Shown here: positions 9,001 through 15,000 of the stretch, in pieces
Layout of the letters: every line of letters begins with the position of its first letter
How positions within the stretch are numbered: the first letter of the stretch is position 1
NCBI GenBank assembly: GCA_031400935.1
Contig: JANNQV010000017.1
Span: 62,001 to 126,000 of the forward strand
Length of the DNA: 64,000 nt
Direction of reading: 5' to 3'
Source: Armatimonadota bacterium
Lineage (GTDB): Bacteria; Armatimonadota; Fimbriimonadia; Fimbriimonadales; Fimbriimonadaceae
Program-made: the position numbers

Positions 9001-12000
9001 CCTTTCAGTTTCAATTGTCATTTCCATTCTTTTTACACCCTGCCCAACTCCTCCATCATCTTCATACCTCAAATAAGGGAGGAGCTCCCGCTCACTTCGC
9101 CCCACTCCTCAATATCGCATTGAAAACCAGCTTAAAAGTCTGAGTTGGCTGGCCACGGAAGAGCACTTCGGGCCCGAAAAGCACAACCCTTCCCTTCCCC
9201 AGCGGAACATCGGCAATTGCGATTGTGTCTTTCAAAATCTCTTGCCCCCATGCCCAGCCAGAACGAAGCGGCTTGGCGGTATCGAATACTGCAACAGTGC
9301 TATCGGGAGGAGGAGTTGGGGTCGTCCACCGAAACGCAGGGCTGTTATCGAACATGGAGTCCACATAATCATTCAGACCCCGCGTAAGGCCGGAAGATAG
9401 TAATAACTGTATTCGAAGCACCGAGCCTGGAACATAGAATTTGGTGTTCGGAAGTCGGCGTGCCGTGCCATCTGGCCCGAGTTCAGTCAAGGCACTTTCT
9501 AAAGGCAATCCAAATGGCCTCAAAAGGTTCTGTGCCGAATCTCCGATCGCGATGATGTGTCCACCATTTTCTGCAAAAGTCTTCAATTCTGCAATCGCCT
9601 TCGCGTTCATGCTGCCCATTCGGGCTCGCCATTCGGCTGGAATGGTCTGATCGTTGCTTTGAGGTTCCCCGCCACCGCCAGGTCCTCCACCACCTTCACG
9701 AACTGCGCCTGGAATCGCGCCAGAAGGAAGCACAATTACATCAAATTTGTCCTTCAAATTGCCCTTCTCAAAGTCGGGCGGGAAGACAAGCTGAAAATCA
9801 AATCCAAATTGTTCGAAGACCCAGCGAGTCCAGCCGGAGGTCATCGAACCGCCGTAGCGATCCCAAAGTGCAATTCGAGGCTTGCCAACTTGCCTCGGAG
9901 TTGTTGGACCTGTGTGCAAGAATCCCCGTCCGGATGCACCATCGCCACGCAAAAATACTTCAGTTCCTGCGTGAAGGGCAGCATTTACTATCTTATAGCT
10001 GTCGAGATCGTGGAAACTTTGCCACTCAGTGAGATTTGCGAACGTAGTCACCCTTTGCCCGCCGATTACAGCCTTCGTTTCCAAACTCACTGGATCAAGA
10101 ACCCTCTCAAACTCGATCCCCATTTGAAACGCCAACGTGTACCCGGCATTGTCATAAGGCGGAATCGGTGGGCCGCCGGGAAACTGAAAGTCGTTCGGAT
10201 GGTCCTGAAACTCGAACATGTCCAATATTTGCGGCCGATAAGCCTGATTGCAGGGAATCACATATGACCCAGCCGGGCAGTTCTTGCCATTGACAGTTGC
10301 CGCCTGAGTGAGCTGCTCGACCTCGACGCCGCAATCCATCAGCCGGTCTACAAACCACCGCATCGAACCTGGATCGCGTTGATCTGCCGGCAAAACGTAC
10401 ATCCGGGCATCGCGCAGTTCTGGCTTCTTGATCGCATCGGCTCCCAACGCCATAACTCGGCTCGAATATCGGGTCCAAGTGTCTTTGTTGCCTCGATCAA
10501 TGGCGTTCTTTGCGGCTTGATAGGTGTCCAGCAGCAGCCTTTCTCGATACCGTGAAGCAAAATCCAAAATCGCATAGTTCGCCTCAACCTCATAGCGCAG
10601 AGAATCGCGCAGATGCCATTCGCCGGGCTCGACAGGCTTCGGAATATCGGTCGTCGGCACCTGGCGATTGTTCAAGAATGGAATCATCGTTGGGTTTGGC
10701 GAACCAAAAGTCTCCGTCAGAATCCCGATCATGTTGTGATAGTAGGTCGTCGTTCTCAGGCCGCCGTTCCACCAGGTCGAATAGTTCGCTGCGTTCCGCA
10801 TCACGGTTCCGCCAAGCCCTTGCACGATCAGCCGTGTGTGCATGTGCATCGCGACCGTATCCGTGGCGACCTGAATGATCGGATCCACATGATAGCTGAA
10901 CGGATTCCGGAATGGCGGGATGAACATAACCGTCCCCGCAGGAGCAGATTGATGGTGGTTGTACAGAATCTGCGGCGACCATTCTTTGTAGAGAATCCGG
11001 TTCATATTCCGCGTTTCGCTCATGTTGTTGGCGTAAAAATCGCGGTTGTTGTCGTGCCCGATGTACTTTTGATACAGCCTCGGAACGCCAGCCAAAGACC
11101 GAGTTTTCGGGTCGGTTTTGCGCATGTACCAATTCGAAACCAGGTCCATTCCATCGGGGTTGGCATGGACGACCAAGATGATCACGTCCTTCAAAATGCG
11201 CTTGTTCTCAGGGTCATTTCGGCTCACCAGCTGATAAGTGGTTTCTAAAAGCTGCTGCGCGCCGAGCACTTCTGTCGCATGCAGCCCGCCATCGATCCAC
11301 ACTACGGTCTTCGCGGTTTTGGCGAGCTTTTCAGCATCCAAATTGTCTTTGAAATCTCGCGCCATAGCGAACTTGCGGCTAGTGGTTCGGTGCTTTTGAA
11401 GGCTCTTCAGGTTCGCCGGATCGCTGATGATCGCCATGTACTGCTCCCTGCCCTCTTCCGTCTTGCCGATGGACTGCAGCATCATGCGGCTGGATTCCTT
11501 GTCGAGCTTTTGCCAATAGGCGGTGAGCTGTTCGTAGTTCGCAAGCCAATAGTCTTCGCAAACCTCATGCCCGAAGAACTGTTTGGGAGTTGTGACTTGG
11601 GCTTGGGCTGAAACGACAAATGCAGCGAGAGCGAGGAGGGGCAATGTACGGCGGAGAACCATAGGAGTAAGTTCGGCGAGGGAGGGCTGGATTCCTGCCG
11701 GTTGTGTGGACACATTGTGCGTACTGATCCTGGTGTAGAGCGAGAGTAGGTTCAATATGTTGACTAACGCGGCACAAATGACTTCCACGGCATGAATGCC
11801 TCACCGTAAAATGCTAGGTAGCGAAGTTTTGCGGCGACCAGGTCTCGAAACGACACATCACCGGAAAGGCAAGCTTCGAAGTCATCCACGTCCATAAGCA
11901 ACACATTTTTCGACGGATTTCGCTTTAGTCCATCTTCAACGTGCTTTGACCAGCCGGACATTGAAATTAAGAGACCAAACACCGTGCTGCCACCACGCTG

Positions 12001-15000
12001 GGCTTTCATAGACAGGACGTCGCAAGTTGCGAGGTCTTGTTCCTCTTTATGCCATTTGCATTCGGCAATGAATAGGTGCGAATCCAATTGAAACGCTCCG
12101 TCAATTTGCTCAGAGCGGCCGTGCCTATCAAAACTCTTTTCCGCATAAATAGCTTCGATCCTCAATAATTCGTTTAGGATCTTTTCAAGTTTGATACCTC
12201 GCGGAATCGGTTTCAATTTTTTTGCATCATCGTACATTCTCACTAACTTCGACCTTGCATCGGATCTGAGCGAACCTAGTGATGGGTCCGCCTTTACCGC
12301 AATGTCGATAAGACGCCGAAAGCAAGGTGAATCTGGACCAACAATTGAACGTATATATGCCAAGTGGCCAAGCGCAACGAGCCGAAATTGACCTAGATGA
12401 GAAGGATAACGATGTTTCTTATCATATTTAGCGTGAAACACTTGCTCAGCATTCTTCTCGCCATATTTGTCCCAAGCATGAAGCATTCCCCTAACTTTTG
12501 CTTCATATTCTCTTTTCACATTGACTTTGCTGTTAACTACTAGGCCTGTAACTACCTGTCGTTGATACCACGTCCGAAGGCGAGTCTTGCTTTCGTTTAC
12601 CTTAAACCCTTCCTTTAAGATTATGCCAACCAACAATTCACTTAGCTCTATTTCTGGTTGAAGAGTTGCGATAAACTCGTGACCAAATGGGCGGTTGCTT
12701 GAAAACGTAATGTCATCGGCATATCGAGAATAGCGACAACCTCTCCTACTAGCAAGGTTCTGCAATAATTTGTCAAGCCTGAAGCAAATTGCATTGGAAA
12801 TAATTGGCGAAGTTGGAGCTCCTTGTGGCAAAACACCAAGATTGCAACAAATCCGAGCCATGACGCGTGCTGCATCTGTATCTAAATTAAAGGGTTGACT
12901 CTGCAATAGACCAATCACCCGTTGCAAAGTGATGGTTGGGAAAAAGTTTGCTAAGTCAAGATTCAGCACGAAGCGCCTTCCCACATGCCGAACAGCGTTT
13001 TTATGTATGCCTCCACCTTTAATGAACCCGCATGTAGAATTCCTTGGTTCATATCGATTCTCAAGGAAAACTAACAATCGCCTTTGAAGCTGCTTTAGCG
13101 TCTTATCGGGGGCAAAGATCTCGCGGGATTTACCTTTCGCCTTAATGTTAAAACTAACGTACTTGCTCGCCGGCGAACGCGCCGCATGGTACCGAAGGTT
13201 CTTTTCCGAAGTGCTCAGTTCAGTAGCAACGTCAGCTACAGTTAGTTGAGAAATTGGGGCAACTTTGGAGAACATATCGTATAGTGGAGCCGTTCATCTT
13301 TGCGCAAGCCGATGCATAGCGCACAGCAATCTGCCGGATGTACCCTTGTTCAATATCGACGCAGTATCTGCGTCCTCAAGCAACGGCTCCGGTCCGATCT
13401 TACCCATTTCTCGATCAGACGTCAGCTCACAAAAAAAATTGGCAATAAATTAAGAGCTTGCTTTTTCTTACCTTCTATACCAGGACGAATCGCTTTGGTT
13501 GTTCGAGCACACCAAGGTCTTGAATCGTATCTCGAATTGACATTTCGAAATAGCGAACATAACTGGGAAAGTTGCCCCGAATCAAGGTCTCCATCGTTCG
13601 AGCGTCACCTTCCGATCTGAAGCAAAGAATCGCCCCTAAACGCCACGGCCCGTTTCCTTTAGTTGCAACAGCACCACGCCCCAAATTGTGCTGCCTTATA
13701 CGTTTCGACACATCGTTCGAATACCCAACATACACGAGTCCTTCACTATTCACAATTACGTATACACAGAAAAGTCGCCCAATTACTGAATCTCCGTTGA
13801 TCTCTTTTCGAACCGTCTGCACTCCGAAATACTCGCCGTCAGGACTTTTGCTCGGCGTGGCCTTGATGTTCGGATCGGTATTGAAAAATGCAAGCGCATT
13901 CTTCTGTAATCTCGCCAAAATTGCAGATTGGCTCCGCCCAAAAGTGCACGAAAGCTCGCAAACGGAAGCTCCACGCCGATACATTTGAACTAGGTTTCTC
14001 TCTTCCCCTGAGGACCATGGCACATAAGCTCGGTCATTCATTGTCTTGCCTGAAACTAATGAGCCTTCCCCGCGTTTGCAGCTTTATAAGCATCTGCAAA
14101 GATTTTCACTTGCGCCATCACACCGTCTCGAATCTCGGCATACTTACTAAGAGATGCTCCAAACAATCCATACGTGCCGGTATCCCACACTTTTGCGGAC
14201 TCATATCTTCCTGGGAAGATAAAAACTCCGCGCTGAACGGCAACTTCTATCTTGTAAAAGGTCGTGCCAAGGCTGTTCTCCATTGCACCTACCCGGACAT
14301 ACAAGAGAGTACTTAGGAGGTCATTTCTTCTTAAGACCTCAATCTCCGTAGTGCCCTTGTCATTTCGAAATGCCTCGGTCTGCTTCGTGCTTTCAATAGA
14401 CGTCATTCCTGACCGTTCTAGGGCTTCCTTAACCCACCCTTCAACAGATGACTCTGAGAAACTCACTTTGATTGAACTTGGCAAGTCCTCGACAAGAACG
14501 CGTATTGGACCTAGTTTTTCAAGCACGCTGATCTCTACGGGAAGTGTGCCAATGGTCGGATTCGCAAGTATAGATGTGGTATTTGTGTTGGGTCTGTTTT
14601 CTGTTGATTTAGCGGAGCCACCGGATCCCAAAATGCTGATCGGCACTCCGTTAACACCCTTAAGCTCTTTCGAACTCACTGCAAAGTTGAGTCCTTGGCT
14701 CCCTTCTACACCTGATGTGACCATACCAATCACATCCCCCATCAGGTTCAAAACTGGGCTACCGCTACTTCCATGATCTACTGCCGCAGAGAGCTGTAAG
14801 ATGTTTCCGGACTTGATTGTGCGCTTTGCAGAAACCATGCCTTCTGTAAGCGTTCCTTCCAAACCCAGCGGACTTCCAATTACTAAAATCGTTTCGCCAA
14901 CTTTGGAACTAGCATAATCACCCAATTTGGGGCCCAACTCACGCTGTTGCCAGCCTTGATAGGCTTCGGTCAGCAGGATAGCAATGTCATTAGCGATGTC

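Follow-up and report, generated by a model that had tools for sequence, protein, structure and literature searches.

The question raised by this locus is whether one gene, together with the RNA in front of it, makes up a complete retron whose effector is a nuclease joined to the reverse transcriptase (RT). In the window (the whole stretch of DNA that was analysed, 64,000 nt), a single ORF on the minus strand (11764..13275) encodes a 503 aa protein, which the genome-wide survey's note had read as a single-gene retron with an RT-Mrr fusion and an msr/msd-like RNA upstream. This was borne out in the main, with three qualifications regarding the effector architecture, the sharing of the RNA family and the RNA of this particular copy. 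With very high probability, the protein is a retron RT that carries a fused Mrr-type nuclease, and a single-gene retron of the clade 8 type, with this fused nuclease and an upstream msr/msd-like RNA, is supported in that it agrees with all of the tests that were run. Two contigs from public data, which may derive from the source samples, cover the whole gene and the upstream RNA without any differences, so that an assembly artefact is disfavoured as far as two identical contigs can show. The preferred reading of how the system works, given a probability of a little under 60% and drawn by analogy, is that of a single-protein anti-phage retron, in which msDNA would restrain the fused nuclease until a phage disturbs that msDNA.

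The fusion protein and its two active sites

The RT domain occupies residues ~8–339 (12259..13275, minus strand), as delimited by motifs, Pfam, PADLOC profiles and structure. All three features by which retron RTs are defined in the main text of PMC7736814 are present, i.e., region X (NAxxH, residues 93–97), the catalytic YADD (185–188) and the VTG of region Y (242–244). The PADLOC scores reported earlier were reproduced exactly (type XI, 5.9e-113; type XII, 1.1e-109; type I-C, 9.9e-93), each spanning residues ~11–335 only. The closest structure to the RT part of the whole-protein predicted model is that of Eco2 (Z 30.4, rmsd 2.8, 321 aligned), Eco2 is again the top Foldseek match, as in the survey, and it is nearest in sequence as well. 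Profile scores and structure group the RT with types I-C, XI and XII of clade 8 (Mestre 2020), in line with its former placement in the clade that carries C-terminal effector fusions. The Toprim of type I-C (EGxxD, DxD/E) is absent from the protein, profile and structure matches stopping at residue ~339. Pfam detected no type XI trypsin-like protease domain in the protein or in 28 members, and no type XII TIR domain is found in either, the score for NF042941 (308.9, cut-off 600) coming from the RT part only.

The C-terminal region, residues ~340–503 (11764..12258, minus strand), is an Mrr_cat-like PD-(D/E)XK nuclease domain with E364, D392, E405 and K407, as judged from the Pfam matches of relatives and from structure. 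A restriction-endonuclease core fold with the D...(D/E)xK motif is present by predicted structure and motif, and in the model D392, E405 and K407 sit on adjacent strands. Structural matches of the domain, taken from the whole-protein model (a single-sequence fold of the C-terminal domain alone gave a pLDDT of 41.7), include R.BspD6I2 (Z 12.9, rmsd 3.0, 151 aligned), N.BspD6I (12.2), AF1548 (12.2) and FokI (11.1). The Mrr_cat-type fold claimed previously stands on this structure and on Pfam matches in 20 of 28 aligned relatives, which form the basis of the assignment, while the 503 aa protein itself has no Pfam Mrr_cat match. A search with the C-terminal region returned the same four other proteins as before, one RT fusion (62% identity) and three Mrr_cat proteins, and close stand-alone homologues of the nuclease (~300–380 aa) bear the same D...E-x-K motif.

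Residues H97, D107, D187, D188, T243 and G244 of the RT, and G360, D392 and E405 of the nuclease, are present in 131 of 131 fusions, so that both active sites look selected. Asp392 and Glu405 are thus invariant, as had been stated, but Lys407 is not nearly so, position 407 being K in 74 and R in 57 of the 131; position 364 is Q in 50 of them.

In structure, the fused domain is like the cleavage domains of FokI and BspD6I, which are non-specific, and no methylation-sensing domain was detected in the fusion protein. E. coli Mrr attacks modified DNA, and the same retron might have another output, with a nuclease that is selective for phage DNA (e.g., modified DNA) or cuts RNA, and cell death not required. 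This alternative is possible but rather unlikely. It is consistent with the Mrr_cat scores of the 20 relatives, with a stand-alone homologue that weakly matches the PADLOC type IV methyl-directed restriction model (E 0.0025), and with the CRISPR ancillary nuclease 6sce among the structural matches (Z 10.4). It also gains from Eco2, whose Toprim, of a DNase family, proved to cut tRNA (PMC12916289); this result, and the fact that a fold reveals no substrate, were counted against the DNA target of the anti-phage reading. On the other hand, no separate DNA-recognition domain lies between RT and nuclease, and characterised retrons have so far been described, in the literature covered, as host-killing or host-arresting.

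The upstream RNA and its family

A candidate msr-msd non-coding RNA of 105 nt lies directly upstream of the RT gene (13286..13390, minus strand), with 10 nt between its 3′ arm and the ATG. The closing 9 bp inverted repeat noted in the survey is confirmed and is perfect, consisting of the 5′ arm (a2/a1 repeat, 13382..13390) and the 3′ arm (13286..13294). Next to the 5′ arm is a candidate priming guanosine (13381, minus strand), the context of which agrees at three of four bases with the TAGC consensus given in PMC6868368. It is followed by a 7 bp msr hairpin with a 3 nt loop (13358..13374), identified by folding and in the register of the relatives' conserved hairpin, and then, 3′ of the hairpin, by an AAGG-like box (13347–13343) that is conserved in comparison with relatives. 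Between the box and the 3′ arm is a candidate msd template (13295..13340), whose ends are able to pair over 4–5 bp; a short msDNA of roughly 46–53 nt would be expected from it. A weak sigma70-like promoter candidate can be read from the sequence on the same strand (13397..13425; −35-like 13425–13420, 17 nt spacer, −10-like 13402–13397), ending 6 nt before the 5′ arm. With 8 of 12 consensus matches it is below the scanner threshold and was not reported in the promoter/terminator scan, the counts of which were at chance level. By eye, about 12 of the 17 relatives have a −10-like hexamer that precedes the 5′ arm by 3–9 nt. Among sequencing runs, none with RNA data was listed as holding the locus, a result that has no bearing on expression.

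A profile of the relatives, built without this sequence, chooses the expected register of the RNA (14.5 bits vs −7.1 ± 4.9; 2 of 2000 shuffles as high). The layout of inverted repeat plus hairpin occurs in 1 of 20,000 shuffles and 13 of 29,736 genome tiles, as against 353 and 874, respectively, for the 9 bp repeat alone. The criteria of these tests were fixed after the locus had been seen. The RNA is about 40 nt shorter than those of its relatives, and its folding is only marginally better than that of shuffles (z −1.1 and −1.6). It was missed by two covariance models, one made from 17 relatives (R1) and one from the msr only (R2; 21 rows, including five non-Mrr comparators), and Rfam gave nothing at E ≤ 5 across 11000–15000. 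The earlier caution about this copy's RNA is upheld by the z of −1.6 and by both of these misses, and it is best described as a divergent msr-msd candidate, the support for which comes from position-restricted tests.

In the RT-Mrr family an msr-msd RNA lies next to the gene, with a1/a2 inverted repeats closing it, and at 17 related loci this msr/msd-like RNA is 136–163 nt long. Across these, 92.8% of cells are paired, two-sided changes are seen in 19 of 32 pairs, and covariation is 0.475, compared to 0.277 when shuffled (0/500) and 0.12–0.16 in slid controls; the conserved family hairpin is 95% paired. The family model detected a held-out RT-Mrr locus (L193, E 1.5e-27), gave one match per genome in three of three whole genomes (all included in the model), and matched none of six stand-alone Mrr loci at E ≤ 0.05. 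It also matches one fusion to Toprim (L170, E 3.7e-13) and one to a protease (L171, E 0.003). The RNA family is common to Toprim- and protease-fused relatives and is not specific to RT-Mrr.

If the RNA of this copy had decayed or been mis-called, then the retron type would still be real, but no msDNA would be made here, or a different RNA would be used. This is improbable. The failure of both covariance models, the short length and the fairly high frequency of 9 bp repeats all fit such a decay, and the subfamily has no covariation support, one of the closest relatives (P0002, 64% identical) being known as a protein. Against it, the independent profile hits the exact register, repeat and hairpin together are rare in shuffles, the protein is intact, and an active nuclease without restraint should disappear fast. 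The RNA of L002, another fusion in the host's family, is also divergent and barely seen by the models (E 0.23–0.26); even so, its fold has a long closing stem (z −2.4).

The base after the inner closing stem, G in this copy, is G in five of the 17 relatives, A in nine, C in two and T in one. There is no invariant G between closing stem and first hairpin among them; many carry a G within the stem, 3–4 nt before this position, and in L087 no G is close by. Priming from non-G bases is conceivable since most relatives are without a G at the expected site. That this RT lineage primes in such a way, and/or that msDNA steers the nuclease to a target set by self-written DNA, is a long shot, and, if true, would change both the understanding of retrons and their use as tools.

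Distribution and neighbourhood

The RT-Mrr fusion recurs in many uncultured bacteria, and a cultured carrier is represented by protein P0248, named from Pseudocnuella soli. With at least 131 distinct full-length proteins, the family far exceeds the ~19 members first reported. In a tree restricted to the RTs of these fusion types, without an outgroup from other clades, RT-Mrr proteins are scattered among Toprim, protease and TIR fusions, which suggests multiple origins. RT-Mrr is thus not a demonstrated single lineage but an effector architecture that has probably been swapped in more than once. One origin was not rejected by an AU test (p 0.056) on a 36-row subset of 104, picked after the tree had been seen. 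Viral contigs yielded eight loci and no RT fusions, and none of the matching records in the plasmid and phage collections (997 and 45, respectively) covers 80% of the protein. A candidate fusion suggested by coverage (L024/L105) is a stand-alone nuclease and was dropped. Among the 17 related loci, three seem to be disrupted, with an IS-like insertion in L014 and frame breaks in L018 and L137.

Neighbours of the gene in the window include those for a GIY-YIG protein (next door), a trypsin-like protein, an M14 peptidase and GmrSD. The nearest defence-like genes are the adjoining GIY-YIG gene and the GmrSD gene, 2.7 kb off, and no obvious defence island surrounds the locus. A link of RT-Mrr to the upstream GIY-YIG gene, or to the separate trypsin-like gene two genes upstream, is unsupported, as these neighbours are not common to other loci. 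Across 19 loci, the neighbours of which were compared with each other only, no common neighbour protein was found save for one near-identical pair and one 23% match, and the survey's description of a single-gene system is supported. In a genome of the same genus (G001), different genes occupy the same slot. The distribution of RT-Mrr is patchy, and in variable slots.

Proposed mechanism and comparison with known systems

In the anti-phage reading, the upstream RNA would be transcribed together with the RT-Mrr gene, and the RT would copy its msd part into a short msDNA. In Eco2, msDNA cages the Toprim domain, and the same paper suggests that other fusion retrons act likewise (PMC12916289); by analogy, the msDNA-RT complex may keep the restriction-endonuclease-fold domain inactive. 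A phage protein that cuts, binds or modifies the msDNA would then release the nuclease, which is predicted to cut DNA with little sequence specificity, and the infected cell would be killed or arrested (abortive infection). For type XI, validation of the RNAs by experiment is stated in 10.1101/2024.01.25.577267, and in STAND systems Mrr_cat is reported to take the place of TIR or SIR2 as effector (PMC9122126). The reading is favoured by what is observed, namely the two-domain protein with its intact catalytic residues and predicted folds, the relatives' structured RNA, the one-gene layout and the patchy distribution. Weighed against it were also the short RNA of this copy, which both covariance models miss, the variable base at the expected priming site, the substitutions at positions 407 and 364, the three disrupted loci and the setting outside a clear defence island.

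Instead of being caged, the nuclease might act on or with the msDNA, maturing or debranching it, or taking its target specificity from it. A DNase fold tethered to the thumb of a DNA-making enzyme is suggestive of this, the relatives' RNA varies most in its msd hairpin, and in some retrons an unidentified enzyme cuts the msDNA close to its branch (PMC6868368). However, this RT and RNA family is used with Toprim, protease and TIR domains as well, a sign of a generic sensor whose toxic effector can be exchanged, and the fused nuclease of Eco2 is described as dispensable for msDNA maturation. A direct role of this kind is quite unlikely.

Under the caging model, a DNA-cutting fold has to exist side by side with the msDNA of the same system, so that the model can be tested directly. 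The RT tree suggests that the RT-RNA pair is a plug-in sensor whose effectors are often swapped, and for retron engineering the relatives' RNAs offer new templates that are short. Since it is the effector that defines a retron type, RT-Mrr, as a recurrent fusion with a conserved RNA, would be an added type, and its sequences (131 or more) are left unnamed by current profiles or are filed under XI/XII.

Neither Table 1 of Mestre 2020 (PMC7736814, main text) nor the retron groups in the sections and supplement matches of Toro 2026 include the fusion, so that its position outside the 13 types and the Toro lineages is maintained for these sources. Five Mrr matches occur in the Toro supplement, as domains that neighbour types II-A, III-A5, IV and V. 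A literature search, covering Mestre 2020 in its main text, found no description of an RT-Mrr retron among the listings and passages covered. TXI_C2like and also TXI_noncan_h, as defined in those sections of Toro 2026, carry WYL or DnaB_C as a gene of its own, no more than two genes from the RT, whereas in RT-Mrr the effector is fused and the window holds no WYL/DnaB_C neighbour; among the 207 protease-less loci of that study, the table of which lists neighbour domains, there could be RT-Mrr fusions that went unrecognised. Types XI (RT-trypsin-like protease), XII (RT-TIR) and I-C2/C3 (RT-Toprim) of clade 8 give the best RT profile matches and their RTs are intermixed with RT-Mrr in the tree, but RT-Mrr is without their protease, TIR or Toprim domains. 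The Mrr_cat (PF04471) and FokI- and BspD6I-type cleavage domains are alike in fold and in the D...E-x-K motif, and RT-Mrr differs from them by its fusion to a retron RT and by the R for K replacement in 57 of 131. Retron-Eco2 (Ec67; type I-C1; PDB 9I2F, 9LM3; PMC12916289) is likewise a single RT-nuclease fusion protein, is the best RT match in sequence and structure, and has a related RNA layout, Ec67-family RNA scoring E 0.05 with the RT-Mrr family model. Its effector is Toprim where that of RT-Mrr is a PD-(D/E)XK fold, the RNA of RT-Mrr is shorter, and the NCBIfam Ec67-fusion score of the 503 aa protein (274.7) is below the cut-off of 450. RT-Mrr would be a second single-protein nuclease retron, beside Eco2.

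Protein family and nuclease domain

The ORF at 11764–13275 (minus strand) encodes a 503 aa protein carrying the retron motifs NAxxH (residues 93–97), YADD (185–188) and VTG (242–244). RVT_1 is its sole Pfam match, and in PADLOC it scores best against the RT-fusion models for types XI, XII and I-C, which match only residues ~11–335. Within the AlphaFold2 model (pLDDT 90.9), residues 8–339 align with the RT-Toprim retron Eco2 (Z 30.4, rmsd 2.8), while residues ~340–500 align with R.BspD6I2 (Z 12.9, rmsd 3.0, 151 aligned), N.BspD6I and AF1548 (both Z 12.2) and FokI (Z 11.1). Motifs, PADLOC models and the Eco2 and R.BspD6I2 matches agree, bearing out the proposal of the genome-wide survey's note that this is a retron RT with a fused Mrr-type nuclease. 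The gene and its upstream RNA are identical in the two public contigs that span both, possibly from the source samples.

When residues 241–503 were searched against 1.84 billion representatives, 19 of the 20 matches at E ≤ 1e-30 (query excluded) included the RT thumb as well as the C-terminal domain. Of the 120 best matches listed for a profile built from 28 proteins with both parts, about 100 were further near-full-length clusters. At least 131 of the 378 proteins collected have a complete RT and C-terminal nuclease domain, so the ~19 full-length members counted previously were too few; identity to the window protein among these listed fusions has a median of 38% and reaches 64%. The RT residues H97, D107, D187, D188, T243 and G244 are invariant in 131 fusions. 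Of the nuclease residues named earlier, Asp392 and Glu405 are borne out as invariant (131/131), but position 407, described as near-invariant Lys, has K in 74 fusions and R in the other 57; at position 364, E occurs in 81 and Q in 50. At E ≤ 0.01, Pfam Mrr_cat is detected in 20 of the 28 family proteins aligned, the window protein not being among them. Judged from the model, the C-terminal domain has a restriction-endonuclease fold with an apparently intact active site.

The same nuclease recurs in P0003, P0005, P0025, P0028, P0030, P0036, P0090 and others. In a large set of stand-alone proteins of ~300–350 aa it lies at the C-terminus, and most of these have no Pfam, NCBIfam or PADLOC name; in a second set it precedes an OLD-like Toprim domain. 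The fused domain probably came from such proteins, whose genes may also be unnamed defence genes. One RT-Mrr gene (L014:3500–4630) is split by a ~1.1 kb element with two transposase-like ORFs, which we take to be IS630-like.

The upstream RNA

Scans of genomes and metagenomes yielded 21 loci that include the 5′ end of a fusion gene; after removal of duplicates (L089, L092, L093 and L094), 17 were aligned, two of them (L016 and L021) near-identical. All 17 have an element of 136–163 nt upstream of the gene. It is built from a long closing stem, an inner stem of 4–5 bp, a U-rich linker, a 3 nt loop hairpin, an AAGG-like box and an msd hairpin that varies. The named pairs are 92.8% standard, with two-sided changes in 19 of 32, and the covariation score of 0.475 compares with 0.277 in shuffles (none of 500 as high, although kinship can inflate this test) and 0.12–0.16 in slid controls. 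A covariance model of the 17 matched the held-out RT-Mrr locus L193 at E 1.5e-27 and none of six stand-alone Mrr loci. A conserved RNA is thus well supported in the RT-Mrr relatives. Outside RT-Mrr, the model picks out RNAs from a Toprim fusion (E 3.7e-13), from a short XI-like RT (E 3e-6), from two protease fusions (E 0.003 and 0.05) and from an Ec67-family retron (E 0.05), so the RNA family belongs to the RT lineage rather than to the effector; the one TIR locus tested gave no match. A cyanobacterial plasmid (L169:41–3975) carries a short type XI-like RT with the same RNA family, adjoining genes for a non-specific endonuclease and an ATP-binding protein.

In the window, a perfect 9 bp inverted repeat (13382–13390 and 13286–13294, minus strand) encloses 105 nt just upstream of the gene. 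By criteria set after the locus was seen, a 9 bp repeat by itself arises often (353 of 20000 shuffles); with a 7 bp hairpin nearby it turns up in 1 of 20000 shuffles and in 13 of 29736 genome tiles, the locus itself being one of the 13. Hairpin-loop anchoring places the RNA in the family register (stem ending TT, 6 nt linker, 3 nt loop hairpin); an AAGG box follows at the family's usual spacing, and a −10-like hexamer precedes the arm by 6 nt. It is unlikely that this RNA has decayed: its folding is weak (z −1.1 and −1.6), as reported before, and it is absent from the window matches of both family covariance models, but a profile built without it selects the same register in the 199 nt intergenic region at 14.5 bits, a score reached by 2 of 2000 shuffles. 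In this copy the msr/msd-like RNA proposed earlier, the weakest part of the case, is supported by position-restricted tests and not by the covariance models. We infer a shortened, divergent family member without the outer stem.

G13381 is the likeliest candidate for the priming base, and the predicted msDNA is ~46–53 nt. The equivalent base in the 17 relatives is G in 5, A in 9, C in 2 and T in 1; with the window and L193 added, the tally for the base following the inner stem, over 19 loci, is A 10, G 6, C 2 and T 1. No invariant G was found between the closing stem and first hairpin in L013–L021, L087–L137 and L193:563–718. Many relatives carry a G a few bases earlier, inside the stem, a position allowed for priming according to passages of PMC6868368.

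Genomic context, distribution and origin

Neighbour proteins compared across 19 loci include none in common, except in a near-identical pair and for one 23% match; the absence of shared neighbours noted before thus extends to this larger set, and RT-Mrr is a one-gene system. In a same-genus genome (G001, 85% complete), other genes lie between the same two flanking genes, and no RVT_1 match was found. The variable slot also holds genes for a GIY-YIG protein (13475–14041) and a trypsin-like protein (14056–15273), both on the minus strand; the G001 genes in the slot are unrelated to these. A fused GmrSD-type type IV restriction gene (7222–9105, minus strand; Pfam GmrSD_N and GmrSD_C) lies 2.7 kb downstream of the retron.

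Among 60 relatives, one other RT-Mrr fusion was found (genome G025; L002:1456–3104), the only other found in the host's family; its RNA is likewise divergent, and its flanking genes are presumably ruvC-like and threonine-synthase-like. Sampling 400 genomes of the phylum gave no RT-Mrr besides that of the window genome, and 400 from the class of the Dehalococcoidia copy L015 gave one besides the seed. Named carriers include MAGs of Dehalococcoidia, other Chloroflexota, Thermodesulfobacteriota and Anaerolineales, as well as an isolate, Pseudocnuella soli. RT-Mrr is rare, widespread and patchy, in the manner of defence genes.

Trees of 104 dereplicated RT domains and 97 nuclease domains were quick, weakly resolved and without other retron clades as root. 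On the RT tree, Mrr fusions intermingle with those bearing Toprim, protease, TIR or other domains; the Mrr label requires 15 changes, 4 of these forced by branches with SH-aLRT ≥ 95. On the nuclease tree, RT-fused domains are mixed among stand-alone ones (e.g., P0035 with P0090 at 99). An AU test on a 36-row subset, chosen with the tree in view, did not reject a single origin (p 0.056); from these trees, repeated effector exchange seems likelier. Further C-terminal fusions in the same RT lineage (P0255, P0319, P0366, P0318, P0350 and P0371) involve PF19960, PF18165 and PF04326, presumably EAD7, a pPIWI-associated nuclease and Schlafen/AlbA_2. They fall outside Table 1 of Mestre 2020, and each could represent another retron type not yet described.

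Mechanism and comparison with known retrons

In Eco2, according to portions of PMC12916289, msDNA acts as the scaffold of a trimer and keeps the Toprim domains caged, and cutting of the msDNA by phage DenB releases tRNA cleavage. By analogy, the msDNA of RT-Mrr would cage the fused nuclease until phage disturbance frees it, the output being a DNase in place of tRNA cleavage. This reading, to which we give a probability of roughly 0.58, is the simplest because the same RT and RNA family serve several unrelated toxic domains. That the nuclease instead attacks phage DNA selectively, or an RNA substrate, is considerably less probable, and that it processes msDNA or is guided by it is quite improbable.

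RT-Mrr is, as first claimed, missing from Table 1 of PMC7736814, where the clade 8 fusions are Toprim, protease and TIR only, and from the portions of PMC13712802 describing two protease-less XI-like lineages. It goes unmentioned in parts of PMC8934634, PMC12548924, PMC7159879, PMC9122126, 10.1101/2025.09.30.679545 and 10.1101/2024.01.25.577267, and full-text searches, whose coverage excludes most subscription papers, returned no description of it. By their defining domains, types I-C, XI and XII do not include RT-Mrr, and the XI-like lineages are set by a separate WYL or DnaB_C gene, whereas the RT-Mrr effector is fused. It most likely works like Eco2, and by the field's effector criterion it is apparently an undescribed retron type forming a sizeable family.
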